A stretch of 35,451 bases of DNA from a virus (lineage: Duplodnaviria > Heunggongvirae > Uroviricota > Caudoviricetes), in IMG/VR virus record IMGVR_UViG_2695420367_000003, positions 1 to 35,451 of that record; one strand, given 5' to 3'. The position numbers and the translations under genes were made by a program. Positions 11,569-29,745 of this stretch are shown one piece after another. The notes beneath the pieces were generated by a model, which was not told the origin of the DNA, did not search any database, and saw only the letters and a list, made by a program, of their open reading frames with translations. Positions within the stretch are counted from its first letter, which is position 1; each line of letters opens with the position of its first letter.

Positions 11569-11699
11569 GAAGATACTCCTGTGCATTTATGGTACGAAGA
11601 AATAGCAAAAGGATTTTTACCGTAAATTGCGAATCTACAAAAGCAAAACAATGCGTAATATCAGAGTGAATATTCTGCCTTTAATGTGGGTCCTTCTGA

Positions 11700-11900
11700 T
11701 GACCTGAGCTCTCACGGGGCGGAAGGCGCGCGGGTTTTCGCTATTTATGAAAATTTTCCGGTTTAAGGCGTTTCCGTTCTTCTTCGCCGTAACTTAATGT
11801 TTTTATTTAAAACCCCCCCTGAAAAGAAAGGAAACGACAGATGCTGAAAACGGGCTTTTTGGCCTTTGTCGTTTCCTTTCTCTGTTTTTGTCCGTGGAAT
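11700..11900 (+). promoter_or_regulatory. cos: Helper cos site (cosN-like 12-mer at about 11717-11728, plus cosB with R sites and IHF site) upstream of Nu1
   Basis: …GGGCGGAAGGCG CGCGGGTTTTCGCTATTTATGAAAATTTTCCGGTTTAAGGCGTTTCCGTTCTTCTTCG… is nearly identical to the lambda cos region as I recall it, except within the 12-mer. Confidence 0.8.
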
Positions 11901-11905
11901 GAACA

Positions 11906-12425
11906 ATGGAAGTCAACAAAAAGCAGCTGGCTGATATTTTCGGTGCGAGTATCCGTACCATTCAGAACTGGCAGGAGCAGGGAATGCCCGTTCTGCGAGG
12001 CGGTGGCAAGGGTAATGAGGTGCTTTATGATTCTGCCGCCGTCATAAAATGGTATGCCGAAAGGGATGCTGAAATTGAGAACGAAAAGCTGCGCCGGGAA
12101 GTTGAAGAACTGCGGCAGGCCAGCGAGGCAGATCTCCAGCCAGGGACTATTGAGTACGAACGCCATCGACTTACGCGTGCGCAGGCCGACGCACAGGAGC
12201 TGAAGAATGCCAGAGACTCCGCTGAAGTGGTGGAAACCGCATTCTGTACTTTCGTGCTGTCGCGGATCGCAGGTGAAATTGCCAGTATTCTCGACGGGAT
12301 CCCCCTGTCGGTGCAGCGGCGTTTTCCGGAACTGGAAAACCGACATATTGATTTCCTGAAACGGGATATCATCAAAGCCATGAACAAAGCAGCCGCACTG
12401 GATGAACTGATACCGGGGTTGCTGA

Positions 12426-12451
<26 letters not shown>
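11906..12451 (+). CDS. Nu1: Terminase small subunit Nu1
   Basis: MEVNKKQLADIFGASIRTIQNWQEQGMPV… matches lambda gpNu1. Confidence 0.95.
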
Positions 12452-16132
<3,681 letters not shown>

Positions 16133-16152
<20 letters not shown>

Positions 16153-17452
16153 TCTCCCGCATATTGCCAGTATGGCCTTTAATGAGCCGCTGATGCTTGA
16201 ACCCGCCTATGCGCGGGTTTTCTTTTGTGCGCTTGCAGGCCAGCTTGGGATCAGCCGCCTGACGGATGCGGTGTCCGGCGACAGCCTGACTGCCGGAGAG
16301 GCACCCGCGACGCTGGCGTTATCCGGTGATGATGGCGGGCCACGACAGGCCCGCAGTTATCAGGTCATGAACGGCATCGCCGTGCTGCCGGTGTCCGGCA
16401 CGCTGGTCAGCCGGACGCGGGCGCTGCAGCCGTATTCGGGGATGACCGGTTACAACGGCATTATCGCCCGTCTGCAACAGGCTGCCAGCGATCCGATGGT
16501 GGACGGCATTCTGCTCGATATGGACACACCGGGCGGGATGGTGGCGGGAGCATTTGACTGTGCTGACATCATCGCCCGTGTGCGTGACATAAAGCCGGTA
16601 TGGGCGCTGGCCAACGACATGAACTGCAGTGCAGGTCAGCTGCTTGCCAGCGCCGCCTCCCGGCGTCTGGTCACGCAGACCGCCCGGACAGGCTCCATCG
16701 GCGTCATGATGGCTCACAGTAATTACGGTGCTGCGCTGGAGAAACAGGGTGTGGAAATCACGCTGATTTACAGCGGCAGCCATAAGGTGGATGGCAACCC
16801 CTACAGCCATCTACCGGATGATGTCCGGGAAACACTGCAGTCCCGGATGGATGCAACCCGCCGGATGTTTGCACAGAAGGTGTCGGCATATACCGGCCTG
16901 TCCGTGCAGGCTGTGCTGGATACCGAGGCTGCAGTGTACAGCGGTCAGGAGGCCATTGATGCCGGACTGGCTGATGAACTTGTTAACAGTACCGATGCGA
17001 TCACCGTCATGCGTGATGCACTGGATACACGTAAATCCCGTCTCTCAGGAGGGCGAATGACCAAAGAGACTCAATCAACAACTGTTTCAGCCACTGCTTC
17101 GCAGGCTGACGTTACTGGCGTGGTGCAAGCGACGGAGGGCGAGAACGCCAGCGCGGCGCAGCCGGACGTGAACGCGCAGATCACCGCAGCGGTTGCGGCA
17201 GAAAACAGTCGCATTATGGGGATCCTCAACTGTGAGGAGGCTCACGGACGCGAAGAACAGGCACGCGTGCTGGCCGAAACCCCCGGTATGACCGTGGAAA
17301 CGGCCCGCCGCATTCTGGCAGCTGCACCACAGAGTGCACAGGCGCGCAGTGACACTGCGCTGGATCGTCTGATGCAGGGGGCACCGGCACCGCTGGCTGC
17401 AGGTAACCCGGCATCTGATGCCGTTAACGATTTGCTGAACACACCAGTGTAA
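16133..17452 (+). CDS. C: Head protease/scaffold protein C (GTG start)
   Basis: MTAELRNLPHIASMAFNEPLMLEP… matches lambda gpC; 20-nt overlap with B as in lambda; the track ORF start at 16019 is upstream of the true start. Confidence 0.9.
16847..17452 (+). CDS. Nu3: Scaffolding protein Nu3 (internal in-frame start within C)
   Basis: In-frame ATG (MDATRR…) 714 nt downstream of the C start, the same offset as lambda Nu3 relative to C. Confidence 0.7.
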   Translation: MDATRRMFAQKVSAYTGLSVQAVLDTEAAVYSGQEAIDAGLADELVNSTDAITVMRDALDTRKSRLSGGRMTKETQSTTVSATASQADVTGVVQATEGENASAAQPDVNAQITAAVAAENSRIMGILNCEEAHGREEQARVLAETPGMTVETARRILAAAPQSAQARSDTALDRLMQGAPAPLAAGNPASDAVNDLLNTPV

Positions 17453-17461
17453 GGGATGTTT

Positions 17462-17794
17462 ATGACGAGCAAAGAAACCTTTACCCATTACCAGCCGCTG
17501 GGCAACAGTGACCCGGCACATACGGCAACCGCGCCCGGCGGATTGAGTGCGAAAGCGCCTGCAATGACCCCGCTGATGCTGGATACCTCCACCCGTAAGC
17601 TGGTTGCGTGGGATGGCACCACCGACGGTGCTGCCGTTGGCATTCTGGCGGTTGATGCTGACCAGACCAGCACCACGCTGACGTTCTACAAGTCCGGCTC
17701 GTTCCGTTATGAGGATGTGCTCTGGCCGGAGGCTGCCAGCGACGAGACGAAAAAACGGACCGCGTTTGCCGGAACGGCAATCAGCATCGTTTAA
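17462..17794 (+). CDS. D: Head decoration protein D
   Basis: [40 protein letters not shown]… matches lambda gpD; AAGGGA RBS. Confidence 0.95.
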
Positions 17795-17849
17795 CCTTAC
17801 CCTTCATCACTAAAGGCCGCCTGTGCGGCTTTTTTTACGGGATTTTTTT

Positions 17850-18125
17850 ATGTCGATGTACACAACCGCCCAGCTGCTGGCGGCAAATGAGCAGAAATTT
17901 AAGTTTGATCCGCTGTTTCTGCGTCTCTTTTTCCGTGAGAGCTATCCCTTCACCACGGAGAAAGTCTATCTCTCACAAATTCCGGGACTGGTAAACATGG
18001 CGCTGTACGTTTCGCCGATTGTTTCCGGTGAGGTTATCCGCTCCCGTGGCGGCTCCACCTCTGAATTTACGCCGGGATATGTCAAACCCAAGCACTTAGC
18101 ATGGCTTTCTGAGGCTTTCGTGTAG
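17850..18125 (+). pseudogene. E: Major capsid protein E, 5' portion only (codons 1 to about 82), interrupted by the satellite insertion
   Basis: MSMYTTAQLLAANEQKFKFDPLFLRLFF…SEFTPGYVKPKH matches the lambda gpE N-terminus, then diverges into 9 unrelated codons and a stop at the insertion junction. Confidence 0.9.
18085..18094. repeat. Left junction core (attL-like) AACCCAAGCA
   Basis: Identical 10-mer at 28518-28527; joining the flanks restores …GTCAAACCCAAGCATGAAGTG… (VKPKHEV of E). Confidence 0.75.
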
Positions 18126-18257
18126 TTGCTGGTTTTTACACTTAATCTTTTGATAATAAAGAATAAGTTTATCTGGCGCTTTCACTGGATTTTCCTCGTT
18201 ATCTGTGTGTTGCAATCATCTCTGTATTGCAGCTTGTATTGCTTTTTGGGGCTAAAA

Positions 18258-19493
18258 ATGGCTGGCGAGAACAAACTGAGCGACAAAGCACTTAAAGGAT
18301 ATCTGGGGAAACCCAGAGAAAAGCAGATCACCATTGCTGATGGAAAGGGGCTTTCTATTCGTGTGAGTACCAAGGGGGCTGTGAGCTTTGTTTTCTTCTA
18401 CAGGTTAGCAGGTGGCCGGGCTGCTCCGGTCTGGCTAACGTTGGGTAAATATCCTGATATGTCACTCAAACAGGCAAGGGAAAAGCGCGACGAGTGCCGT
18501 GGTTGGTTGGCTGACAAACGTGATCCGCGTATCCAGATTAAGATTCAGGCTGAAGAACGCTTAAAGCCGGTCACAGTGGAGGATGCACTAAATTACTGGT
18601 ATGAAAATTACTGTAAGGTGCGTCGTAAAACTCATGCTGTAACGCTTGGCAGATTTCGAAAGCATATCTTTCCCTATATCGGTCATTTGCCCGTAAATGA
18701 CACTCACCTATATGAATGGCTGGACTGTTTTGACCGAATTAAACGTAATGCACCAGTTATGGCGGCGTATGTTTTTTCTGACACTAAATTAGCTCTTCGT
18801 TTTTGTCGGGTACGCCAGTACGCGACGTGTGATGCTTTAAAGGATTTGCGCATGAGTGATGTGGGGCAGATTGCAGGTAAGCGGGATCGGGTTCTGGATG
18901 AAGCCGAACTGGGCCAGCTCTGGAAGGCAATTTTTGTCGAGCCTGATTTAAAACTAATGTCTGAATACACGCGAAAAATGTTTGTGCTTTGTACAGTATT
19001 TGGATGTCGAATGAGTGAAGCCCGATTATCAGAATGGAGCGAATGGGATCTCGAAAGTTGGGTTTGGACTGTACCAAAAGATCACTCAAAAACTGGTGTT
19101 GAAATCGTCAGACCAGTACCTGAAATTCTACGACAGTGGGTAACGGATGTTCACGAAGAGACAAAACATACTGGTTATGTGCTGGGAAGTCTGCGAATTA
19201 GAGAAAGCGTAAGCAAGATTGGGGGGAAAATCGGTAAACGTTTGGGCCATGAAAAACAATGGTCACTACACGACCTTAGAAGAACGCTTTCAACCCATCT
19301 GAGTGATTTGGGCGTTGAGTTTCATGTAGTGGAGCAGCTGTTAGGCCATGCGCTACCTGGCGTGGCAGGTGTTTACAACCGGAGTAAGTTTATGGCTAAA
19401 AAACTGGATGCTCTGGAACTCTGGACTACATATCTCAATAGCATCGCAGCTGCTGATTCAAAAGTGACAATCCTCAAACAAAAGGCTGGTTAA
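18258..19493 (+). CDS. int: Tyrosine integrase (P4-type, with N-terminal arm-binding domain)
   Basis: N-terminal …LSDKALKGYLGKPREKQITIADGKGLSIRVSTKGAVSFVFFYR…; catalytic-region motifs HDLRRT…LLGH…VYNRS; true ATG at 18258, the track start is upstream. Confidence 0.88.
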   Translation: MAGENKLSDKALKGYLGKPREKQITIADGKGLSIRVSTKGAVSFVFFYRLAGGRAAPVWLTLGKYPDMSLKQAREKRDECRGWLADKRDPRIQIKIQAEERLKPVTVEDALNYWYENYCKVRRKTHAVTLGRFRKHIFPYIGHLPVNDTHLYEWLDCFDRIKRNAPVMAAYVFSDTKLALRFCRVRQYATCDALKDLRMSDVGQIAGKRDRVLDEAELGQLWKAIFVEPDLKLMSEYTRKMFVLCTVFGCRMSEARLSEWSEWDLESWVWTVPKDHSKTGVEIVRPVPEILRQWVTDVHEETKHTGYVLGSLRIRESVSKIGGKIGKRLGHEKQWSLHDLRRTLSTHLSDLGVEFHVVEQLLGHALPGVAGVYNRSKFMAKKLDALELWTTYLNSIAAADSKVTILKQKAG

Positions 19494-19494
19494 C

Positions 19495-19728
19495 ATGAAA
19501 AAAATGGCAATTGTCGATAAAAAGGGTCTGGAGTACATTCCTAACATTGACCGTATGATCCGCGAAAAAGAATGCCGTGAGTTAACTACTCTTGCTAATA
19601 GCACTCGATGGAAGTTAGAGAAAGAAGGAAAGTTTCCAAAGCGTATTAAAATAGGTGCCACTGCCGTAGCATATCGCCTTTCGGAGGTGCAGGCGTGGAT
19701 TCGTGGGGAATGGTACTTAAATAAGTAA
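19495..19728 (+). CDS. alpA: AlpA-family HTH regulator/excisionase-like protein
   Basis: …ECRELTTLANSTRWKLEKEGKFPKRIKIGATAVAYRLSEVQAWI… fits the AlpA pattern; directly follows int. Confidence 0.8.
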   Translation: MKKMAIVDKKGLEYIPNIDRMIREKECRELTTLANSTRWKLEKEGKFPKRIKIGATAVAYRLSEVQAWIRGEWYLNK

Positions 19729-19736
19729 ATCATTTC

Positions 19737-19765
19737 AATTAGGTAGGTTTATTACCTACCTAATT
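19737..19765. terminator. Perfect palindrome AATTAGGTAGGT-TTATT-ACCTACCTAATT between convergent genes (bidirectional terminator candidate)
   Basis: Seen directly: 12-bp perfect inverted repeat with a 5-nt loop, between the alpA stop and the stop of the minus-strand 241-aa gene. Confidence 0.6.
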
Positions 19766-19768
19766 AAT

Positions 19769-20494
19769 TTAAATCATGTCTGCCTTATTTCCTAATTTTA
19801 TGGAGCAATCCTCTAAAAGATGCCCGATGAACTTATGAGTTCCAATAACATAATCTTGAAGCCTATATTCCATTCCTAATAATGACTTGTTCTCTTTGTC
19901 CTTGAAAAAAGGAAAAGAGGCAAGGTTTTCATCGACAATATAAAGGTGTTTGATTTTGTTGTTTAAAACCCTAGTTTCGTTAATGACATCGTAAGAATCA
20001 AGTTGGGAGAGGTCAATACCATAACTTAAGTATTTCTTTTTTAATTTATCCCATGTATATGGAACTTTAACTTGACTTTCAGGTATTTCTTTAATAATTG
20101 CTTCTAGCAAAGAGTATGCCATGGTACTAAACTGTTCAATAATAGCCCAAAGATTAATTACGACACTGTCATTGGCAAAAAATGAGGCTTTTCTATTAAG
20201 ATCATCATAATAACCAACCATCTCTCTATGTCTGGCTTGAGAAATCAAGGCCATTTCATGCACTTCATCGTCTAATAAGTCTGGATTATATTGGGGAGTG
20301 TTGTCTGCAATTTTTTGTATCTCCTTAAGATTTATGTTATATGTATGATAAACAAATGAGTGAAATACTATTAGATCTTCAAGTCGGAACGAAAATTTCC
20401 CAAGTAGAGACAGGAATCTACTATCATGAGGGAAATAATGTGGGATAGGATTGTCTGTTAAATTATATTCACTTATTCGTTTTAGATTTTGCAT
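19769..20494 (-). CDS. Hypothetical 241-aa protein, AT-rich cargo (function unknown)
   Basis: Long ORF, visibly AT-rich versus surrounding genes, co-oriented and 24 nt downstream of the RHH gene; no motif I recognise. Confidence 0.6.
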   Translation of the reverse strand: MQNLKRISEYNLTDNPIPHYFPHDSRFLSLLGKFSFRLEDLIVFHSFVYHTYNINLKEIQKIADNTPQYNPDLLDDEVHEMALISQARHREMVGYYDDLNRKASFFANDSVVINLWAIIEQFSTMAYSLLEAIIKEIPESQVKVPYTWDKLKKKYLSYGIDLSQLDSYDVINETRVLNNKIKHLYIVDENLASFPFFKDKENKSLLGMEYRLQDYVIGTHKFIGHLLEDCSIKLGNKADMI

Positions 20495-20518
20495 CTCTCA
20501 CAGATCCTTTTAAAAGTC

Positions 20519-20713
20519 TTAACCTCTAGGTTCAATACCTTGTTTGCGTAGTTCTGCTCTTGCTAGTTCTTTAAGCCAATTAGCCAAACTCATTCCTTCT
20601 TTTGCAGCCGCACTAACCATTTGTTCTTTTAGTTCCGGGTGGATACGGATCTGAAATGCCGGTGCCTTACCAGCACCTTTCGGCTGTTTATCGCGCTGAA
20701 TGATAGTTGACAT
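20519..20713 (-). CDS. Ribbon-helix-helix (CopG/Arc-like) DNA-binding protein; candidate repressor or antitoxin
   Basis: 64 aa; …FQIRIHPELKEQMVSAAAKEGMSLANWLKELARAEL… is typical of RHH proteins; first gene of a leftward operon diverging from the replication module. Confidence 0.65.
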   Translation of the reverse strand: MSTIIQRDKQPKGAGKAPAFQIRIHPELKEQMVSAAAKEGMSLANWLKELARAELRKQGIEPRG

Positions 20714-20716
20714 GTA

Positions 20717-20817
20717 TGTACCTATTGCTTAGTATGCTTCTTGATAGGTACACACCTTATCATGTTTTATTACTCTGTAACAACGCCCTGCAGTGCTCGC
20801 AACACATACAGGGCGTT
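20717..20817. promoter_or_regulatory. Divergent control region with two 9-bp inverted repeats, each with an 18-bp spacer
   Basis: TGTACCTAT…ATAGGTACA (20717-20752) and AACGCCCTG…CAGGGCGTT (20782-20817), between the divergent RHH gene and the 20853 ORF. Confidence 0.5.
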
Positions 20818-20852
20818 TAACCACCAACGATAGCAACAGTATCGAGGTAGCT

Positions 20853-21056
20853 ATGAGAAATCATACCACACACCCGCAAGGGCGGGACCCGCACAACCTG
20901 AATAAATACATCTGGCGTTTTATCGCCCTGAGTACGGCACAACCGCGCGTGATTACCATCGAGGCCACCAGCGAACAGGAAGCCCGCCAGCAATCCCCAA
21001 CTGGCTGCGTGATGATATTCGCCGCCCGTATTCGTCAGGAGGTGTGCCATGAATGA
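20853..21056 (+). CDS. Hypothetical small protein (67 aa)
   Basis: GAGGTAG RBS before the ATG; first gene of the rightward operon leading to the primase. Confidence 0.5.
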   Translation: MRNHTTHPQGRDPHNLNKYIWRFIALSTAQPRVITIEATSEQEARQQSPTGCVMIFAARIRQEVCHE

Positions 21057-21273
21057 TCTTTATTTGAAAGTGCTGACACATGCTGAAAACGCGCTCGTTT
21101 GTGGCAAAAATATGCGAGAAATCTTATCAACCTGGCTTGATGGGACAACAAATGCGGAACACGATGAACGGGATGCTAATTTAGCTGGAGCGTTAATTAC
21201 GTTACTTGATCCTGTCATCAAAGAGCTGGATGAAGCTATAAAAATACACGACCAGAGCTATACCGGAGAATAA
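21049..21273 (+). CDS. Hypothetical small protein (74 aa)
   Basis: AGGAGGTG RBS; start overlaps the upstream ORF stop. Confidence 0.5.
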   Translation: MNDLYLKVLTHAENALVCGKNMREILSTWLDGTTNAEHDERDANLAGALITLLDPVIKELDEAIKIHDQSYTGE

Positions 21274-21276
21274 AAA

Positions 21277-21564
21277 ATGAAAAATAAATTTTCTGGCTTT
21301 ATTGCCAGCGGTCAAACTCATTCAAAAATCAGCCTTGGGGATATTTTCAAAGACAGCTATGGCTATCGGGTAAAGATTATTTCGGTTGATGATCGTCGTG
21401 TCTCTTATTTGCGTGATGGTTATGATTTTGAATGTGTTATGCCGCGTCAGCAGTTCGAAAGAGATTTCATTCTGGTAAAAAATTGCAAGACAGATAATCA
21501 GAGGCGTGCCGCAGGCTATATCCGTAAAATTCGGGCAATGTTAGTTGCCGGAGGTAACAAATGA
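21277..21564 (+). CDS. Hypothetical small protein (95 aa)
   Basis: GGAGAA RBS; stop overlaps the primase start. Confidence 0.5.
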   Translation: MKNKFSGFIASGQTHSKISLGDIFKDSYGYRVKIISVDDRRVSYLRDGYDFECVMPRQQFERDFILVKNCKTDNQRRAAGYIRKIRAMLVAGGNK

Positions 21565-23381
21565 AACGTGCTCCGAACTTAAAATACCAACCGCGCGACA
21601 AAATGACGGAAGTCATCATTTTTGCTGGCAGTGATGCCTGGAGCCATGCAAAAGAATGGAATGAATGGGCAGGTAAGCATATTGCAGCAGATGATACACC
21701 ACCAGTCATTCTGGGTACAGAACAACTGGAAAACCTGGATGATATGCAAATTATCGATGAAGGCCGTCATTATGTGCGTGTTTATCGTGCTGGAAAGATT
21801 GCAGAGAAAAGTCTGACGAAGGTTGCGACATTACTTGCTATTGCAGGCGTAAAGGAAGCACGTTGTTACCGTAGCTTTGTTGATCGAGAGCCTGAAGACT
21901 GGACTCCGCGCCTTGTCGGCCTAAAAGCTGAAGCGGAGCATGGGGAAAGTCTGGTGATTGAACTGCCAGTGAAGAAGGCAGAGCGCAAAAATGACGAGCG
22001 TGCTTCATCTTTGGCGTTGAATCAGATGGGGGCCAGCCAGCGCGGTGAAGTTCTCCTTGCACATTACGGCGGCGAACTGGCAATCAATGCCGACTCTGAC
22101 ACCGTTCATCATTACAACGGCGTTGTATGGGAGCCGGTTCAGGATAAAGAGTTACAGCGTGCTATGGCGCAGATTTTCATTGATGCGGAGATCAGCTATT
22201 CGCAGAACGCTATTAAATCGGCGGTAGATACCATGAAGTTAAGTTTGCCTGTAATGGGGAATACAGCCCGTAACCTGATTGGATTCAGTAACGGGGTATT
22301 TGATACCAGAACTGGTAATTTTCGGGAGCATAACAAAAACGACTGGTTGTTAATTGCCAGTGAATTACCTTTCAGCCCACCAGCAGAGGGGGAAACGCTG
22401 GCAACACATGCGCCGAATTTCTGGAAGTGGTTGCGCCGTTCGGTGGCTGAGAATGACCGCAAGGCAGATCGCGTACTGGCGGCATTATTCATGGTGCTGG
22501 CGAACCGGTACGACTGGCAGTTATTCATTGAGGTAACAGGGCCGGGGGGAAGTGGTAAAAGTGTGATGGCGGAGATTTGCACCATGCTGGCGGGTAAGGC
22601 GAATACAGTATCAGCAAGCATGAAGGCGCTGGAAGATGCAAGGGAACGTGCGTTAGTGGTTGGCTTTTCGCTGATTATCATGCCGGATATGACCCGCTAC
22701 GCTGGTGATGGGGCAGGGATTAAGGCCATTACAGGCGGTGACAAGGTGGCAATTGACCCGAAACACAAAGCCCCCTATTCAACGCGTATTCCGGCAGTAG
22801 TGCTGGCGGTTAACAATAACGCCATGTCATTCAGTGACCGCAGCGGGGGGATCTCACGTCGTCGGGTGATATTCAATTTTTCGGAAGTTGTACCGGAGAA
22901 CGAACGCGATTCGATGCTGGCGGAAAAAATAGAAGGTGAGCTGGCGGTAGTGATTCGTCATCTGCTTACACGGTTTGCTGATCAGGACGAAGCCAGACGC
23001 CTGTTATATGAGCAGCAGAAATCTGAAGAAGCACTGGCGATAAAGCGAGAGGGGGATTCGCTGGTGGACTTCTGCGGCTATCTCATGGCATCGGTAATGT
23101 GTGATGGCCTGTTAGTGGGTAATGCTGAAATTGTGCCATTCAGCCCACGCAGGTATCTCTATCATGCCTATCTGGCTTATATGAGGGCACATGGGTTTGG
23201 TAAACCTGTAACACTGACGCGCTTCGGTAAAGATATGCCGGGGGCAATGGCGGAATATGGCAGGGAGTATATGAAACGGAAAACGAAGCACGGTTTGCGT
23301 TCAAACGTGACACTGACGGAGGAATCAGAAGACTGGATGCCATCATGTGTATCGGTCACTAATGACGATAGCAAAAATTAA
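21561..23381 (+). CDS. Phage/plasmid primase-helicase (P4-alpha-like domain with SF3 helicase Walker A GPGGSGKS)
   Basis: 606 aa; Walker A and downstream helicase-like motifs; immediately followed by the iteron array. Confidence 0.85.
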   Translation: MKRAPNLKYQPRDKMTEVIIFAGSDAWSHAKEWNEWAGKHIAADDTPPVILGTEQLENLDDMQIIDEGRHYVRVYRAGKIAEKSLTKVATLLAIAGVKEARCYRSFVDREPEDWTPRLVGLKAEAEHGESLVIELPVKKAERKNDERASSLALNQMGASQRGEVLLAHYGGELAINADSDTVHHYNGVVWEPVQDKELQRAMAQIFIDAEISYSQNAIKSAVDTMKLSLPVMGNTARNLIGFSNGVFDTRTGNFREHNKNDWLLIASELPFSPPAEGETLATHAPNFWKWLRRSVAENDRKADRVLAALFMVLANRYDWQLFIEVTGPGGSGKSVMAEICTMLAGKANTVSASMKALEDARERALVVGFSLIIMPDMTRYAGDGAGIKAITGGDKVAIDPKHKAPYSTRIPAVVLAVNNNAMSFSDRSGGISRRRVIFNFSEVVPENERDSMLAEKIEGELAVVIRHLLTRFADQDEARRLLYEQQKSEEALAIKREGDSLVDFCGYLMASVMCDGLLVGNAEIVPFSPRRYLYHAYLAYMRAHGFGKPVTLTRFGKDMPGAMAEYGREYMKRKTKHGLRSNVTLTEESEDWMPSCVSVTNDDSKN

Positions 23382-23394
23382 ACTTATGGAATAA

Positions 23395-23620
23395 CTGTTC
23401 ACCACTGTTCACCCTGTCATAAATATCTTTTATATCAGTATATTATAGGGTGAACAGTTATTTATGAACTGTTCACCAAACTATTCACTGTTCACCTTTT
23501 TGATTGTTTATTGAGCTTCAAGGGTGAACAGTGGTGAACAGTTGGTGAATAGTTTTTGTGAAACTGTTCACCCATTAACATTATGAATTAAAAGAGAAAA
23601 TATCAAAAGGTGAACAGGTG
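23395..23620. repeat. Satellite replication origin: at least 10 copies of the iteron GGTGAACAG/CTGTTCACC in both orientations
   Basis: Seen directly: the motif recurs at about 23396, 23406, 23449, 23469, 23489, 23524, 23534, 23545 (variant), 23565 and 23610 within an AT-rich stretch downstream of the primase. Confidence 0.8.
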
Positions 23621-23668
23621 AAGGGTTAAAACGCAAAAATTTTAATTTACTGCTGTGAGATAAAGCCT

Positions 23669-23914
23669 ATGACAGCGAAGCACACAAAAAAATCACAATC
23701 GCACGCCCTTGATTTGACGGAACACTGGTTAAGGGTGTCGATAAAAATCATCGACCGCAACGCCGGGGAAGGATACGCGAAAGCACATCCCGAACTGATT
23801 AGCGCATTCATGACAACGGCGGCTGCAAACTTTGCCACTCTGACCGAACGGGAGATTGCTGAAGCGGAGGAAGTGACAACAATCAATATTAAGTCCGGAG
23901 AGCAGGCAGCATGA
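23669..23914 (+). CDS. Hypothetical protein (81 aa)
   Basis: ORF overlapping the SSB-like gene start; no recognisable motif. Confidence 0.45.
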   Translation: MTAKHTKKSQSHALDLTEHWLRVSIKIIDRNAGEGYAKAHPELISAFMTTAAANFATLTEREIAEAEEVTTINIKSGEQAA

Positions 23915-24360
23915 TGGCGCAAATATCAGTTTACGGGCGGTTGGTGGACGACCCGCAGACAAAACAGACCAGCAAGGGCACCCCCATGACGCTGGCGCGT
24001 ATGGCGGTATCAATGCCCTGCAGTCAGTCGGATGACGGTCAGGCGACGATGTGGTTATCTGTCCTGGCGTTTGGCAGACAAGCCGACGCACTGGCAAAGC
24101 ATCACAAAGGCGAACTCCTGAGCGTGGCGGGTAACATGCAGATGAGCCAGTGGACTGGACAGAACGGCGAAACGCGGCAGGGCTGGCAGGTTATCGCAGA
24201 CAGCGTAATCAGTGCGCGATCGGTGCGACCGGGCGGCAAAAAAGGCCAACAGGGGCAGGCTACTGACGAACTGAACAGAGCAAAACAACAGGCAGATCAG
24301 CAAGGAAGCCAGCCACCAGTGGGAGATAATGAGCAATGGGGAGATGATATCCCGTTTTAA
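23911..24360 (+). CDS. SSB-like single-stranded DNA-binding protein with C-terminal acidic DDIPF tail
   Basis: OB-fold-like N-terminal region parallels E. coli SSB; Gly/Gln-rich linker; C-terminal …EQWGDDIPF. Confidence 0.7.
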   Translation: MMAQISVYGRLVDDPQTKQTSKGTPMTLARMAVSMPCSQSDDGQATMWLSVLAFGRQADALAKHHKGELLSVAGNMQMSQWTGQNGETRQGWQVIADSVISARSVRPGGKKGQQGQATDELNRAKQQADQQGSQPPVGDNEQWGDDIPF

Positions 24361-24375
24361 ATATTGCCAATAAAA

Positions 24376-24401
24376 AAGGCCGGAAAAAATAAATTTTCCG
24401 G
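24376..24401. terminator. Hairpin GCCGGAAAA-AATAAA-TTTTCCGGC downstream of the SSB-like gene
   Basis: Perfect inverted repeat with A-rich and T-rich arms; a possible terminator or attenuator before the capsid genes. Confidence 0.4.
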
Positions 24402-24576
24402 CATGCTACATAAATCCCGACCAAAGGGAGTGAAGATATTAACACTAATTGTCCGCACTGAAGTTGTCACCCCAAAACTTTATACAACATTGCACTCGGT
24501 TGCATGTGTTCGCATGACAAATATCGGTGGTAGCATATATCCACAATTATTTTTAATGAATGCAAAGAGGATGCGT

Positions 24577-25617
24577 ATGGTTGATTTATATTCGCCTACT
24601 CAGCTTGTACAGGTGGTTAATGCTGTAGATGTACAAAAACAACTAAATGCGTTGTTTACCAGTTTGTTTTTTACTCGCTCGGTAATGTTTGAATCGCGCG
24701 ATATTATTCTTGATACAATCGACGATCCAAATATCCCAATTGCAGCGTTTTGTTCTCCTATGGTGGGTAGTAAAGTTTCACGTGACGAAGGGTACGAATC
24801 AAAAACAATTCGTCCAGGCTATATGAAGCCGAAAAGCAGCATTGATCCAAATAAGTTAGCTGTGCGCCCTGCTGGTGTATCACCTGAGCAATACAATGCT
24901 TTTGGGGCACGTAATATTAAAGTTAAACAGGCGATTGTAAATCAAGCTAAAGCTATTCGTGCACGTATTGAATGGCTTGCTGTTCAGGCAATCACAACGG
25001 GGAAAAATATCATTGAGGGCGATGGTATTGAACGTTATGAGCTGGACTGGAATATTAAACCACAAAATATCATCACTCAGTCTGGCGGTGCTGAGTGGTC
25101 AGGTAAGGATAAAGAAACTTTTGATCCAAATGATGATATTGAGAGCTACGCAGAATTTAGTGAGGGCGTCACTAATATTATCATTATGGGCGGTAATGTA
25201 TGGAAGAAATACCGTTCATTCAGAGCGATAAAAGAGGCTCTGGATACCCGTCGTGGTTCTAATTCCGAACTGGAAACGGCCCTTAAAGACCTTGGTGATT
25301 CGGTGAGTTTTAAAGGGTATATGGGCGATGTTGCGATTGTTGTATACAGCGGGCGTTATACCGACGAGGACGGAACTGAAAAACATTTCCTTGATCCTGA
25401 TTTGATGGTGCTTGGCAATACGGCTCTTCAGGGGATTGTCGCCTATGGCGGTATTCAGGATCCGGAGCTAATCCGAATGGGGCTGACTAAAGCCGAACTT
25501 GCACCGAAAAACTATATTGTGCCTGGTGATCCGGCTATTGAATATGTGCAGACACATTCAGCACCACAGCCAATACCGGCCCGCATCAATCGTTTTGTTA
25601 CCGTTCGCATTGGCTAA
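24577..25617 (+). CDS. Satellite-encoded major capsid protein, diverged homolog of lambda gpE
   Basis: C-terminal 180 aa align to lambda E (…SGGAEWSGKDKETFDPNDDIESYA…LDTRRGSNSELETALKDLG…GDVAIVVYSG…); N-terminal half diverged but collinear (RPGYMKPKS vs TPGYVKPKH); GAGG RBS 6 nt before the ATG at 24577. Confidence 0.85.
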   Translation: MVDLYSPTQLVQVVNAVDVQKQLNALFTSLFFTRSVMFESRDIILDTIDDPNIPIAAFCSPMVGSKVSRDEGYESKTIRPGYMKPKSSIDPNKLAVRPAGVSPEQYNAFGARNIKVKQAIVNQAKAIRARIEWLAVQAITTGKNIIEGDGIERYELDWNIKPQNIITQSGGAEWSGKDKETFDPNDDIESYAEFSEGVTNIIIMGGNVWKKYRSFRAIKEALDTRRGSNSELETALKDLGDSVSFKGYMGDVAIVVYSGRYTDEDGTEKHFLDPDLMVLGNTALQGIVAYGGIQDPELIRMGLTKAELAPKNYIVPGDPAIEYVQTHSAPQPIPARINRFVTVRIG

Positions 25618-25626
25618 GGGGGAGCA

Positions 25627-25968
25627 ATGGCTACTCATTACACTGAACTCATGGCTGGCACTGAAGCACTGGTGACTACACTGGGGATATTTTCAGCTAA
25701 TAAAGGGGTAATTCATGCATTTACGCCACTGATGCAGGAAGATGCAACAGGTGCACTGGTGGTATGGGATGGTTCGAGCGTAGGTAAAGCGGTTTATGTT
25801 TCCGCTGTACAAATCGACACCGCGAAAAAAACACAGGCTCAGGTCTATAAGACAGGTGTCTTAAATGTTGATGCTCTGAACTGGCCTGAGTCTGTTAAAG
25901 AACTGTCAGTAAAGGTTGCAGCGTTTGTTGGCTCAGGTATTTCTGTTCAGCCGCTGGCTCGTGTGTAA
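25627..25968 (+). CDS. Satellite-encoded head decoration protein, diverged homolog of lambda gpD
   Basis: 113 aa; shares the spaced pattern TPLM…WDG…G…Q.YK.G…WPE…AF.G..ISV with lambda D (copy at 17462-17794). Confidence 0.65.
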   Translation: MATHYTELMAGTEALVTTLGIFSANKGVIHAFTPLMQEDATGALVVWDGSSVGKAVYVSAVQIDTAKKTQAQVYKTGVLNVDALNWPESVKELSVKVAAFVGSGISVQPLARV

Positions 25969-25979
25969 AGGGGGATACA

Positions 25980-26363
25980 ATGCAGAATGATTACAATGAC
26001 CTTAAGCCAATTGCCGAAATGATGTACCCGAATCAAGCTGTAGAGGAATTAAAAGCTATCGCTGACAAAATGTGTTTAAGCGAGCGCCTTGTTGATATGA
26101 ATCAGGTGATGGAAATTACAACCCTGAGTCGTCGTACACTGCTAAACCTTGAGGCTAGTGGAGAGTTCCCGGAGCGTGTGCAGGTTACGGAAGGGCGTAA
26201 GGCCTGGTATTTAAGTGAAGTGATCGACTGGATAAATAATATTCCTCGCGCTTCTGAATATTGCCGCGTACCTGTCCCAAAAAAGCCAGATGCGGCGCTA
26301 TGCCTCAAGATTGAGCGTGTACGCCGCAATGCACGGGATGGTCGCTATAAGCTGATTGGTTGA
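25980..26363 (+). CDS. HTH DNA-binding protein (AlpA/MerR-like motif) adjacent to satellite cos
   Basis: …MEITTLSRRTLLNLEASGEFPERVQVTEGRKAWYLSEVIDWI… helix-turn-helix; last gene before cos. Confidence 0.6.
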   Translation: MQNDYNDLKPIAEMMYPNQAVEELKAIADKMCLSERLVDMNQVMEITTLSRRTLLNLEASGEFPERVQVTEGRKAWYLSEVIDWINNIPRASEYCRVPVPKKPDAALCLKIERVRRNARDGRYKLIG

Positions 26364-26413
26364 TGAAGTTAGGGCCCGCTCTGGCTGGCGGGTCCTTTCC
26401 GGCGATCCAGAAC

Positions 26414-26600
26414 GTTACGGGGCGTCAGGCGCGCAGATTCTTGCTATTTATGACAATTTTCTGCGATTTGCCGTTTCCGTTCTTCTTCCTCGTAACTTAG
26501 TGTTTTTACTAGAAATACCCTCTTAAAAGAAAGGAAATGACAGGTGCTGAAAACAGGCTTTTGGGTCTCCGTCATTTCCTTTCTCATTTTTATCTAAAAG
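26414..26600 (+). promoter_or_regulatory. cos: Satellite cos site (cosN-like 12-mer at about 26420-26431 plus cosB-like R and IHF elements), no terminase gene attached
   Basis: About 190 bp closely similar to the helper cos region (…CGTTTCCGTTCTTCTTC…AAAAGAAAGGAAA.GACAG.TGCTGAAAAC.GGCTTTT…TTTCCTTTCTC…); not followed by Nu1. Confidence 0.8.
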
Positions 26601-26815
26601 TAAGCATCGAGGCCACCCCAAATGCTTATAGAGGTTATTGTGTCACTATGCGTACTGTTCAGGATTTAAAGTAGCAAGACATCTAGTTGCTTGCAGTTTT
26701 GGCGAATGATGTGAGGTTCTCTATAACAGATAATGTAACAAGTTACTGATATATTCTGTTATGGTTGACTTTAAATTCTGTTGCTCCTTCAATGAATTAT
26801 TGAGGGGTGAAAATT

Positions 26816-26841
26816 AGGCGTGATAAGAATCGATCACGCCT
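26816..26841. terminator. Hairpin AGGCGTGAT-AAGAATCG-ATCACGCCT just beyond the 3' end of the minus-strand cargo gene
   Basis: Perfect 9-bp stem; T-rich on the plus side and A-rich on the minus side. Confidence 0.5.
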
Positions 26842-26846
26842 ATTGT

Positions 26847-28163
26847 TTATCTTGAAGAAATTTTAGGCAGGCTTTTTAAAAATAAATCTTTATTTCTACT
26901 TGCATCAGTTAAAAGTGTTAGGAATATTTTATCTGTAGGAGTGCATGTGCTCTTGTTTAACAGTAATTCACCAAGTTTCTGTAATCGAGAGAATTGCCCA
27001 TCCTCTTGGATTCTGTGACGAAGTGTACTATCATTTTTAATAACATCAACAAATGCAGAAACCATGTTAATATCAAAGTATTCAAACATTTCCAATATTA
27101 AAGGTGCAGCCCCATTTGAATAAAAATTCTTCCTTCCATACTGATAGCTGAAACCACGATGGCCAACATAAGTTTTTGTAATGGCTGAAACAAATTCAAC
27201 AATATTATCTTCAGGGACGAAACTCGAGAATGGTAATAATTGGGTTACGATTTTTTCCTCTTCTGACCAATTATCTAAAGACTCGGTGAGTTTATTAATG
27301 AGAGGCTCAATAATAACTTTTCGGGATGCAGGGCTAATATACATCAGTCCATCTACCAATAGTATGAATTGTTGTGCCTTCTCTATCTTATTGTTGTTTC
27401 CTGAAACTAAATACTTGTCAAATTGTTGGCCGACTTTACGTCGGTCGTCTTTTGAAAGTAATGTCCATAAAATAGGTGCGCAAAATTCAATGTTGTTTCT
27501 GAGTTCACTTGATATATTGGATGAGCAGTATGTGCCAAAAAAACGAGAGGATAATTCACTGATATAAATTGCAGGTAGATCTGAAAAGGCTTGCTTAACT
27601 GCCAGACTATTTTTATTAAATGTTGCCGAATCCATTTCTGAAAGATATGTAGATATATCTATGATGGCTGGTGGAAACTCTTTAGAAAGAACGTATTTAT
27701 TACAATCATTAATCAGGTTCACTACTTTGATTAAATCAGGGTCGCTACTTTGTGGATGTCCACCAAATAGATTCCTGGTTTCTCTAGCTTGTTGTAATAG
27801 TTTCTGACCTTCTCGATCGATAACTCCTATTTTAAATGCTCCATCTATTAAATCAAAGTCGCTCACATAATCCTGAAAATCTTCATACGTTTTAATTTCT
27901 TTTTTTTGTTTACACTCTTTGTTGAATAGATCTAGGCTACGATGAATTATCTTTTGACGTAAATCATCAACTACAGCATTCCAGTAAGCAGTGATGGCAC
28001 TTCTATAACCTTTTACAGGAAGAACTCTTATTGCTTCTGAAATATATGGGCAGTCAACTACATCATGCCTCACAGTTGAGAGCGCAGTTTGTAACAATGT
28101 AACTTCTGTAGAGTCTAGTGGAGTTGGCTGCACTAAATGAGAACTTATCTCTGTACCCTTCAT
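26847..28163 (-). CDS. Hypothetical 438-aa protein, AT-rich cargo (function unknown; candidate accessory or defence gene)
   Basis: Long uninterrupted ORF, visibly AT-rich, between satellite cos and the right junction; no motif I recognise. Confidence 0.6.
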   Translation of the reverse strand: MKGTEISSHLVQPTPLDSTEVTLLQTALSTVRHDVVDCPYISEAIRVLPVKGYRSAITAYWNAVVDDLRQKIIHRSLDLFNKECKQKKEIKTYEDFQDYVSDFDLIDGAFKIGVIDREGQKLLQQARETRNLFGGHPQSSDPDLIKVVNLINDCNKYVLSKEFPPAIIDISTYLSEMDSATFNKNSLAVKQAFSDLPAIYISELSSRFFGTYCSSNISSELRNNIEFCAPILWTLLSKDDRRKVGQQFDKYLVSGNNNKIEKAQQFILLVDGLMYISPASRKVIIEPLINKLTESLDNWSEEEKIVTQLLPFSSFVPEDNIVEFVSAITKTYVGHRGFSYQYGRKNFYSNGAAPLILEMFEYFDINMVSAFVDVIKNDSTLRHRIQEDGQFSRLQKLGELLLNKSTCTPTDKIFLTLLTDASRNKDLFLKSLPKISSR

Positions 28164-28517
28164 TTCAGGATTTTCCTATTCTTTTCCATTTTTCTACTCT
28201 ATTGAATTTGAAAAAGATATCAAGTTCGTTCTTGCCAGTTTTAAGTGGAAAAATTGATGTTACCTTATTGAGATAAGGCAGTTCTCTATAACCTATTGTT
28301 ATTAATTATTTTTATTTTTTTTCCAATTCAGATGTTTAGGGCTAAGAAGTTAAGTGAGAGTTCACAGCAAAACTGCTTCTAGTTCCTCACCGAGGAGCAA
28401 AAGGTTAAGACAGCGTACTTTGTATTGCACAATGTATTGCAGAACCTTCTTTCGAAAGCTACAACAATCAATTTTATATTGAAAATTCAATCATATCCTT
28501 TCGATATTGACTCATAT

Positions 28518-28527
28518 AACCCAAGCA
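28518..28527. repeat. Right junction core (attR-like) AACCCAAGCA
   Basis: Identical to 18085-18094; the downstream sequence continues in the E reading frame. Confidence 0.75.
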
Positions 28528-29308
28528 TGAAGTGAATCCGCAGATGACCCTGCGTCGCCTGCCGGATGAAGATCCGCAGAATCTGGCGGACCCGGCTTAC
28601 CGTCGCCGTCGCATCATCATGCAGAACATGCGTGACGAAGAGCTGGCCATTGCCCAGGTGGAAGAGATGCAGGCAGTTTCTGCCGTGCTTAAGGGCAAAT
28701 ACACCATGACCGGTGAAGCCTTCGATCCGGTTGAGGTGGATATGGGTCGCAGTGCGGCGAATAACATCACGCAGTCCGGCGGCACGGAGTGGAGTAAGCG
28801 TGATAAGTCCACGTATGACCCGACCGACGATATCGAAGCCTACGCGCTGAACGCCAGCGGTGTGGTGAATATCATCGTGTTTGATCCGAAAGGCTGGGCG
28901 CTGTTCCGTTCCTTCAAAGCCGTCAGGGAGAAGCTGGATACCCGTCGCGGCTCTCATTCCGAACTGGAGACAGCGGTAAAAGACCTGGGCAAAGCGGTGT
29001 CTTATAAGGGAATGTATGGCGATGTGGCCATCGTCGTGTATTCCGGACAGTACGTGGAAAATGGTGTCAAAAAGAACTTCCTGCCGGACAACACGATGGT
29101 GCTGGGCAACACTCAGGCACGCGGTCTGCGCACCTATGGCTGCATTCAGGATGCGGACGCACAGCGCGAAGGCATTAACGCCTCTGCCCGTTACCCGAAA
29201 AACTGGGTGACCACCGGCGATCCGGCGCGTGAGTTCACCATGATTCAGTCAGCACCGCTGATGCTGCTGGCTGACCCTGATGAGTTCGTGTCCGTACAAC
29301 TGGCGTAA
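28520..29308 (+). pseudogene. E: Major capsid protein E, 3' portion (codons about 80 to 341), separated from its 5' portion by the satellite
   Basis: …KHEVNPQMTLRRLPDEDPQNLADPAYRRRRIIMQNMRDEELAIAQ… to the C-terminus …DPDEFVSVQLA matches lambda gpE; no own start codon or RBS. Confidence 0.9.
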
Positions 29309-29349
29309 TCATGGCCCTTCGGGGCCATTGTCTCTCTGTGGAGAAGTCC

Positions 29350-29745
29350 ATGACGAAAGATGAACTGATTGCCCGTCTCCGCTCGCTGGGTGAACAACTG
29401 AACCGTGATGTCAGCCTGACGGGGACGAAAGAAGAACTGGCGCTCCGTGTGGCAGAGCTGGAAGAAGAGCTTGATGACACGGATGACACTGCCGGTCAGG
29501 ACACCCCTCTCAGCCAGGAAAATGTGCTGACCGGGCATGAAAATGAGGTGGTATCAGCGCAGCCGGATACCGTGACTGATACGGCTGCTCTGGTCACGGT
29601 CGTGGCACTGGTGACGCTGCACACTGTTGCACTTCACGCCACGCGGGATGAACCAGTGGCATTCGTACTGCCGGGAACGGCGTTCCGTGTCTCTGCCAGT
29701 GTGGCAGCCGAAATGACAGAACATGGCTTGGCCAGAATGCAATAA
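29350..29745 (+). CDS. FI: DNA packaging protein FI
   Basis: MTKDELIARLRSLGEQLNRDVSLTGTKEELALRVAELEEEL… matches lambda gpFI. Confidence 0.92.
   Translation: MTKDELIARLRSLGEQLNRDVSLTGTKEELALRVAELEEELDDTDDTAGQDTPLSQENVLTGHENEVVSAQPDTVTDTAALVTVVALVTLHTVALHATRDEPVAFVLPGTAFRVSASVAAEMTEHGLARMQ

Follow-up and report, generated by a model that had tools for sequence, protein, structure and literature searches.

A second cos site was located at 26390-26585 of the 35,451-nt Caudoviricetes stretch IMGVR_UViG_2695420367_000003 (positions 1 to 35,451, here called the window), in what is, by its gene content, a 10.4-kb satellite inserted in capsid gene E of a lambda-like prophage. We regard this site as probably (about 0.75) the packaging site (cosQ-cosN-cosB) of the satellite, a helper-embedded phage-inducible chromosomal island (HE-PICI), and as one that would be served directly by the helper terminase, Nu1/gpA. 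Direct recognition by Nu1 and IHF would be the simplest mechanism because lambda-type R elements were present and no Rpp adaptor was found. The finding confirms a satellite-within-helper composite and shows the DNA signal most probably used for packaging of the satellite.

Anatomy of the two cos sites

A first-pass annotation, made from the letters alone, had placed the second cos at 26414-26600 and had named motifs that it shared, in the same order and orientation, with the region upstream of the helper gene Nu1; direct reading found these motifs in both regions. A repeat scan of the whole window returned the pair as a two-copy family (11714-11888 and 26417-26591; 175 nt, 81% identity, ungapped). 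The helper and satellite cos regions were 81.4% identical over 177 nt (blastn, E = 2.5e-45 pairwise and 2.2e-43 against the whole window), and no further non-self match was found in the whole window at E ≤ 1e-3. The pairwise alignment was thus significant, and the similarity is far above the chance level. The two sites are co-oriented and lie 14,703 bp apart.

Both copies were aligned with the joined ends of phage lambda (J02459), and the subsite definitions were taken from Murialdo and Feiss (PMC9026076, section 1.3). The features are as follows.

11688-11694, + strand: helper cosQ heptamer GGGTCCT, by pattern match and alignment to lambda cosQ (lambda 48473-48479), 22 nt upstream of cosN
11717-11728, + strand: helper cosN, putative 12-nt cohesive end GGGCGGAAGGCG, by homology to lambda bp 1-12
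11766-11882, + strand: helper cosB, by alignment to lambda
11769-11781, + strand: helper R3 core
11790-11802, + strand: core of the helper IHF site I1
11824-11838, + strand: helper R2
11868-11882, + strand: helper R1
26390-26396, + strand: satellite cosQ heptamer GGGTCCT, 23 nt upstream of cosN (lambda spacing)
26420-26431, + strand: satellite cosN, putative 12-nt cohesive end GGGCGTCAGGCG, by homology to lambda bp 1-12
26469-26585, + strand: satellite cosB, lambda type, by alignment to lambda
26469-26484, + strand: satellite R3 bp 50-65 (core 26472-26484)
26493-26505, + strand: satellite I1 core
26527-26541, + strand: satellite R2, one C>T
26571-26585, + strand: satellite R1, one G>A
26592-26846, strandless: breakpoint zone; homology with the helper stops immediately after R1, at the place where the helper has the start of Nu1

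The location given for the second cos therefore stood, and both cohesive ends that had been guessed (11717-11728 and 26420-26431) are exact homologues of lambda bp 1-12; the start of the feature had been set too late, as cosQ lies approximately 30 nt upstream of it. Judged by its anatomy, the second cos is complete and of the lambda type, with cosQ, cosN, R3, I1, R2 and R1 in lambda order and spacing and with R2 inverted as in lambda.

The overhangs of helper and satellite were identical at 10 of 12 bases and differed at the two central ones, and the nick-proximal half-sites (CG/GGGCG ... AGGCG/CG, with a slash at the nick) were the same in both. Relative to the lambda overhang, GGGCGGCGACCT, 5 of the 12 satellite bases differed. 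The satellite cosN would presumably be cleaved into 12-nt 5′ cohesive ends. The 37-nt spacer between cosN and R3 was free of indels (27/37 identical between helper and satellite), R3 bp 50-65 were identical at 14/16 positions, and R3 bp 55-63, TTTCCGTTC, were identical at 9/9 positions among satellite, helper and lambda. These nine are the bases contacted by the small terminase subunit (TerS); the spacing between cosN and cosB is critical, and the large subunit (TerL) has low sequence specificity and relies on the anchoring of TerS at cosB (PMC9026076). The single transitions in the satellite R2 and R1 fall at the equivalent of R3 bp 54, just beyond the mapped contact segment. They are complementary, so that the pairing of the R2/R1 inverted repeat is kept; the R2 change alone was present in some relatives.

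The R2/R1 inverted repeat gave a strong RNA fold in both copies (11824-11882 and 26527-26585; z = -4.4 and -4.8) because the repeat itself pairs. No promoter-like site was found in 26200-26900, both terminator-like hairpins in that interval were outside cosB, and no known RNA family or tRNA was found at or near cos.

The helper's own cos is not of the lambda type: its overhang is GGGCGGAAGGCG rather than GGGCGGCGACCT, and its cosQ-cosN spacer has 22 nt rather than 23 nt. Despite this, its Nu1 and gpA are approximately 99% identical to those of helpers with the lambda overhang.

Terminase genes followed the first cos only, as had been claimed. Downstream of it were Nu1, A, W, B, C and D, with Nu1 and gpA located as follows.

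11906-12451, + strand: helper Nu1 (Pfam Phage_Nu1 PF07471, E = 9e-101)
12426-14351, + strand: helper A (gpA; GpA_ATPase and GpA_nuclease)

A hidden terminase in the satellite was ruled out, as neither Nu1 nor gpA nor any of three satellite-type TerS proteins gave a tblastn match better than E = 1.3 in 18085-28527. The breakpoint zone contained no terminase-type or Rpp-type open reading frame (ORF), and a convergent cargo gene comes next. The earlier claim of a helper-compatible satellite cos is thus supported by a cos that appears complete and of the lambda type and that has no terminase gene; the two sites are not interchangeable copies.

Comparison among phages indicates that the helper terminase should be able to cut the differing satellite cosN, because the half-sites are identical, TerL specificity is reportedly low and near-identical terminases are natively paired with three cosN 12-mers. 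The lambda overhang GGGCGGCGACCT was present in six helpers (L002, L006-L009 and L011). GGGCGGAAGGCG followed by Nu1 and gpA was found in the window and in 46 IMG/VR phage contexts of the cos census, and GGGCGTCAGGCG in three true phages (L021, L055 and L066). Across the compared phages, 178-180 of 181 Nu1 residues and 634-637 of 641 gpA residues were identical to those of the window, and phage L055, which has the satellite 12-mer, showed 178/181 and 634/641. Terminases were 98-99% identical across cosN types; therefore, the type of cosN does not track the type of terminase.

The constancy of the satellite overhang, with helpers of the lambda type in six genomes and of the GGGCGGAAGGCG type in the window, might instead indicate that the satellite cos is functional but requires, beyond the resident Nu1, another lambdoid phage with cosN GGGCGTCAGGCG or an unrecognised Rpp-like satellite factor. 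True phages with the satellite cosN do exist, no function is assigned to several of the small satellite ORFs, and redirection by Rpp is the usual route in the model PICI of E. coli. We consider this unlikely. Rpp accompanies a non-lambda cosB, whereas cosB here is of the lambda type with identical R3 contact bases; no Rpp homologue was found by tblastn or PDB search; the phages with satellite-type cosN have terminases 98-99% identical to that of the window helper; and the AlpA-like neighbour of cos, approximately 70% conserved across differing packaging modules, is an unlikely specificity factor.

The satellite in helper gene E and its proposed packaging

Lambda E aligned to the window in two pieces (17100-18094 and 28520-29697), with the break at codon 80, and in-silico excision of the insert gave an intact 341-aa E (337/341 identical to lambda E). 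The insert is read as a satellite in the helper capsid gene E because of its gene content, the 10-bp repeat that flanks it within E and this restoration of E on removal. The boundaries and genes are listed below.

17850-18094, + strand: helper major capsid gene E, 5′ part, codons 1 to approximately 80 (98% to lambda E, blastn)
18085-18094, + strand: attL core AACCCAAGCA, a 10-bp repeat (junction read directly)
18085-28517, + strand: satellite, 10,433 bp (Pfam, PHROGs and NCBIfam matches and att cores)
18126-19493, + strand: int, tyrosine integrase
19495-19728, + strand: alpA
19769-20494, - strand: 241-aa protein without family match, in a variable slot after int/alpA
20519-20713, - strand: HicB/YlcI-like
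20793-21056, + strand: Icd-like
21277-21564, + strand: DUF4222
21561-23381, + strand: D5 primase
23669-23914, + strand: phrog_1231
23911-24360, + strand: SSB
24577-25617, + strand: E-like capsid protein, 346 aa
25627-25968, + strand: D-like decoration protein
25980-26363, + strand: second AlpA-like protein, 127 aa
26847-28163, - strand: cargo gene, 438 aa, phrog_27609, convergent
28518-29308, + strand: attR core AACCCAAGCA (28518-28527) and 3′ part of helper E

All satellite genes in the window were open. Eleven of the 14 satellite ORFs were on the + strand, as is helper E, and three were on the - strand (19769-20494, 20519-20713 and 26847-28163). The gene order fits the zones of Gram-negative PICIs (int/alpA, variable zone, primase/SSB and late zone). 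Among head and packaging proteins, the Pfam and PHROGs matches of the satellite comprised the capsid and decoration proteins only, with no portal, protease or terminase. The satellite capsid protein was 42% identical to helper E.

Under the proposed mechanism, all steps of which are drawn from homology, induction would lead to excision of the satellite at the AACCCAAGCA cores and to restoration of helper gene E. Replication by the satellite's own primase would generate concatemers with one cos per 10.4 kb. Helper Nu1 and IHF would bind the R3-I1-R2-R1 array of the satellite directly, and Nu1 would position gpA to nick the satellite cosN, leaving 12-nt GGGCGTCAGGCG ends. Satellite DNA would then be pumped into helper-made proheads until packaging was terminated by cosQ and cosN of a downstream cos. 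Unlike in EcCICFT073, a PICI of E. coli, no satellite TerS or Rpp adaptor would be required. A tetramer (41.7 kb) would be within the packaging range of lambda and a pentamer (52.2 kb) outside it if full-size heads were used; the E-like and D-like proteins of the satellite may change head size instead.

The co-orientation of the two cos sites, 14,703 bp apart, also allows the embedded cos to be pictured as acting mainly in cis against the helper, as a second site of terminase entry or cutting that diverts packaging and yields defective helper chromosomes. With a composite of approximately 61 kb (PMC10111431), the interval from satellite cos to helper cos would be approximately 46 kb and packageable, whereas the 61-kb helper-cos unit would not be, and the two overhangs are not complementary. 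We consider such a main role highly improbable: the argument is one of geometry alone, and relatives that are not embedded carry the same module (L154, beside rpoD/dnaG), so that having this cos does not depend on being embedded. A packaging role would be compatible with such an effect and is not excluded by it.

Several observations concern the capsid genes and the variable slots. The 417-aa capsid ORF listed at 24364-25617 begins at an upstream TTG, and annotated relatives place the real gene at 24577-25617 (start MVDLYSPTQL); in strain ET665 the satellite capsid gene is interrupted by an internal stop and is a pseudogene. Approximately 80-105 nt at 74-80% identity are common to the capsid genes of satellite and helper (25212-25316 and 28906-29010), a possible site of helper-satellite recombination. 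The cargo slot between cos and attR (26600-28517) is variable. The 438-aa cargo protein had no Pfam, PADLOC or NCBIfam match, and PADLOC gave no defence match for it or for the small satellite ORFs. In relatives, the slot contained a TIR-domain protein, HEPN plus DUF262, DUF2971 or DUF3892, which suggests a defence hotspot. A restriction endonuclease and an abortive-infection protein were annotated somewhere within related elements. In the slot after int/alpA (19769-20494 here), relatives had DUF2971 or other unrelated genes.

Elsewhere in the prophage, replication gene P and antiterminator Q are separated by a 1302-aa inverse autotransporter (1811-5719), intimin/invasin-like with IAT_beta and several Big_1/Invasin_D3 domains, the gene of which contains a 357-nt tandem duplication (3120-3419 and 3477-3776; 98% identity). 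An alpha/beta-hydrolase gene of the BD-FAE/esterase family (5756-6799, - strand), in the early-late region, is probably a moron, that is, an accessory prophage gene. Within the O-like replication gene (39-863), four TTACCYGAATCAGGTAA-type repeats, approximately 23-24 nt apart at 285-401, look like lambda-type ori iterons.

Packaging modules among relatives

IMG/VR was scanned for two exact 18-mers (cosN patterns), E. coli loci were added, and the contexts were classified by script. The satellite 12-mer GGGCGTCAGGCG was present in 56 of the 61 satellite contexts surveyed. Selection by cosN did not apply to the seven E. coli composites, all of which had the satellite overhang GGGCGTCAGGCG; six of their helpers had the lambda 12-mer and that of the window had GGGCGGAAGGCG. 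In the six composites with a lambda-overhang helper, the satellite and helper overhangs differed at 5 of 12 bases. Helper cosB was near-invariant and the satellite cosN was constant whichever cosN the helper had, a comparison with no power to show tracking of the helper cos by the satellite cos. At least 122 complete E. coli genomes had the satellite cos (coverage ≥80%) in an unchanged position. An integrase/primase island with "major capsid protein x3" around it was found in many complete RefSeq E. coli genomes, and the satellite segment from int through the second alpA region showed approximately 97-98% DNA identity across dozens of genomes, in elements at the same insertion site. One locus, L010 (E. 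coli IAI39, NC_011750.1), is a decayed composite, in which the same satellite is accompanied by a 3′ fragment of helper E and tail genes; an IS3 element beside tRNA-Arg has taken the place of the head genes of the helper and of the first part of the integrase.

Three types of packaging module were observed. Type 1, the type of the window, comprised 37 satellites with a lambda-type cosB and no terS. Type 2 comprised nine satellites with canonical R3, R2 and R1 and a 183-aa chimeric Nu1 directly after cos (L008:16230-16781 in NZ_CM144248.1 and eight IMG/VR loci, for example L013 and L016). The first approximately 100 residues of this protein were identical to lambda Nu1, and the C-terminal approximately 80 were diverged; the C-terminal part of lambda Nu1 is the gpA-binding region. 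Type 3 comprised 13 IMG/VR satellites (L019, L024 and L025 among them) in which cosQ and cosN were kept, the lambda R elements were absent and TerS was 34% identical to Nu1; the cosB/TerS pair was apparently swapped. Around one cos, a single satellite lineage thus seems to have explored several ways of being packaged (without terS, with a chimeric Nu1 or with a divergent TerS), and the relatives form a natural series for studying the evolution of packaging specificity.

Among the 37 terS-less relatives, the cosQ spacing and the cosN 12-mer were invariant. When the unique sequences of this group were aligned, homology with the phage cos ended at no fewer than five points, all of them 3′ of R1 except in variant S12, a pattern that selection for a complete cosB would predict. 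In the terS-less locus L007, the first 12 codons of Nu1 were fused to unrelated sequence. Because the end-points of homology differ yet lie just 3′ of R1 (S12 excepted), the pattern argues that a cos-Nu1 module may have been captured from a helper and that Nu1 was lost repeatedly while a complete cosB was retained.

The same loci could suggest that the second cos is a decaying and disused relic of a captured cos-Nu1 module, in a satellite that is immobile or spreads passively with the prophage. A full Nu1-like gene follows the same cos in L008 and its first 12 codons in L007, so that the version in the window would be a deletion derivative; R2 and R1 each carry a transition and are lost altogether in some terS-less relatives; and no virions were detected for the published element 11capE (PMC10111431). 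We nevertheless judge disuse improbable, as cosQ and cosN are intact along with the distance from cosN to R3 and the contact bases of R3, deletions end just after R1 rather than within cosB in all but the eight-locus S12, the R2 and R1 changes are complementary and preserve the inverted repeat, and the satellite genes are open and highly conserved from int through the second alpA.

Several points weigh against the use of the second cos as a packaging site served by the helper. Beyond the transitions in R2 and R1, the cosN-R3 spacer differs from that of the helper at 10 of 37 bases, and the cosQ-cosN spacer has 22 nt in the helper and 23 nt in the satellite. The R elements vary more in terS-less satellites than in phages, and variant S12 (eight loci) has C>T at R3 bp 59 and no match to R2 or R1; full function need not be assumed for every family member. 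Because exact cosN 18-mers were used to choose the IMG/VR loci, cosN-type frequencies are biased. Virions from the 11capE composite were not detected by Tommasini et al. (PMC10111431), and no packaging experiment for HE-PICIs was found in a search of the later literature.

In all relatives, the second AlpA-like protein is encoded upstream of cosN at a constant distance; it matches AlpA (PF05930; PDB 8c3t, E = 2e-9). Among the genera with homologues at approximately 70% identity were Enterobacter, Citrobacter, Klebsiella, Salmonella and Pluralibacter. A Nu1-family gene followed the capsid, decoration and AlpA-like genes in Buttiauxella, and an Rpp-like fragment and cos followed them in Pluralibacter; these loci (L153-L155) are PICIs with the capsid/decoration/AlpA-like trio that are not embedded in a prophage, and L154 adjoins rpoD/dnaG. 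A role of the AlpA-like protein as a packaging-specificity factor was set aside, the protein being conserved while the downstream module is Nu1-like, Rpp-like or absent. The candidates for such a role are all winged-helix proteins. Because of this conservation alongside a varying packaging module, the gene beside cos is taken as a likely regulator, and a specificity role appears unlikely.

A speculative extension, to which we give a low probability, is that the lineage keeps a private cosQ-cosN (GGGCGTCAGGCG, unlike most resident helpers) and uses the stretch downstream of it as a swappable specificity cassette. The forms observed are lambda cosB alone, lambda cosB with a chimeric Nu1 (foreign gpA-binding tail), a non-lambda cosB with the 34% TerS and, in related PICIs, an Rpp-like gene. 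The private overhang and the embedded cos could then sabotage the helper, through a phage-sized packaging unit from satellite cos to helper cos with ends unable to anneal.

Comparison with known systems

By its site and gene content, the window element is another HE-PICI of the 11capE type at site Phage_cap_E_80. 11capE is embedded in prophage 50icd of E. coli NRG857c (Tommasini, Mageeney and Williams 2023, PMC10111431). Its site has a 10-bp identity block and 201 instances, it lacks terS and is presumed to be packaged by the helper cos machinery, at the position of the lambda cos it has 258 bp in common with its helper (90% identity), and its excision and replication were observed (PMC10111431). 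The reading of the second cos offered by the first-pass annotation is thus a rediscovery of a remark already in print in 2023, and nothing here overturns current views. Both elements have the site at E codon 80, the 10-bp att block, the size class, the gene order, an own E-like capsid gene, no terS and a cos segment shared with the helper. In the window, unlike in 11capE, the shared segment has 175-177 nt at 81% identity, homology ends right after R1, the helper cosN is not the lambda 12-mer and the cargo gene is a different one (438 aa, phrog_27609). The cos subsites were not dissected in the 11capE paper. The present analysis adds the anatomy at the level of subsites, a contrast with Rpp-based packaging, the overhang private to the satellite and three variants of the packaging module in related elements.

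Relative to lambda cos, the satellite has the same subsites, order and spacing, an identical R3 bp 55-63, the I1 core and the inverted R2/R1 pair. It differs in 5 of 12 overhang bases, in one transition each in R2 and R1 and in having no Nu1 downstream.

P4, whose helper is P2, has a helper-type cos, no terminase of its own and full dependence on the helper terminase. Small-capsid redirection is proven for P4 and for SaPIbov5, the latter of which encodes a capsid-protein homologue; in the window satellite it is a possible role of the E-like and D-like proteins. The helpers and gene sets of P4 and SaPIbov5 are unrelated to those of the window, and neither element is inserted in its helper. No sid, psu or delta was found in the Pfam and PHROGs matches, and cos and helper are of the lambda type, so that the satellite is not P4-like; a D5-type primase, an integrase, AlpA and an Icd-like gene are all that it has in common with P4-like satellites. 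It is likewise not a capsid-forming PICI (cf-PICI), having an E-like capsid and a D-like decoration protein only, with no portal, protease or terminase. SaPIbov5 (helper phi12 or phiSLT) has a helper-type cos and no terminase and uses the helper terminase (PMC6092414).

EcCICFT073 resembles the window satellite in its int, alpA, primase, capsid and decoration genes followed by cos, in the absence of terS and terL and in its need for the terminase of a lambda-like helper. Its cosQ and cosN are lambda-like and its cosB is not; helper TerS is needed, and an Rpp-TerS heterocomplex recognises this cosB and blocks phage packaging (Fillol-Salom et al. 2018 and 2019; PMC6092414, PMC6739421). EcCICFT073 is reportedly packaged as phage-length concatemers in full-size heads, and cloned PICI cos sites allowed plasmid transfer by lambda and phi80 (PMC6092414). 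In the CFT073 region that we retrieved, cos1 (L005:2529-2600) was directly followed by a 144-aa ORF, RppA, which matched RppC (PDB 6hlk, E = 5e-31) and served as positive control for the Rpp search. RppA gave a best tblastn E of 0.034 in the window, inside the primase gene, and RppC was not found by PDB search with the concatenated small satellite ORFs. An Rpp adaptor in the satellite was rejected on these searches, the positive control having worked. EcCICFT073 cos1 aligned with the window satellite over cosQ, cosN and approximately 40 further nt only. Features of EcCICFT073 alone are the non-lambda cosB, RppA immediately after cos1, an additional, inverted cos and a location in the chromosome rather than in a prophage; the window satellite has lambda-type R3, I1, R2 and R1 and no Rpp homologue, and it does not belong to the Rpp-type class of E. 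coli PICIs. EcCICFT073 altered cosB and evolved Rpp, whereas the window satellite keeps the helper cosB without an adaptor and would thus compete with its helper for the same terminase.

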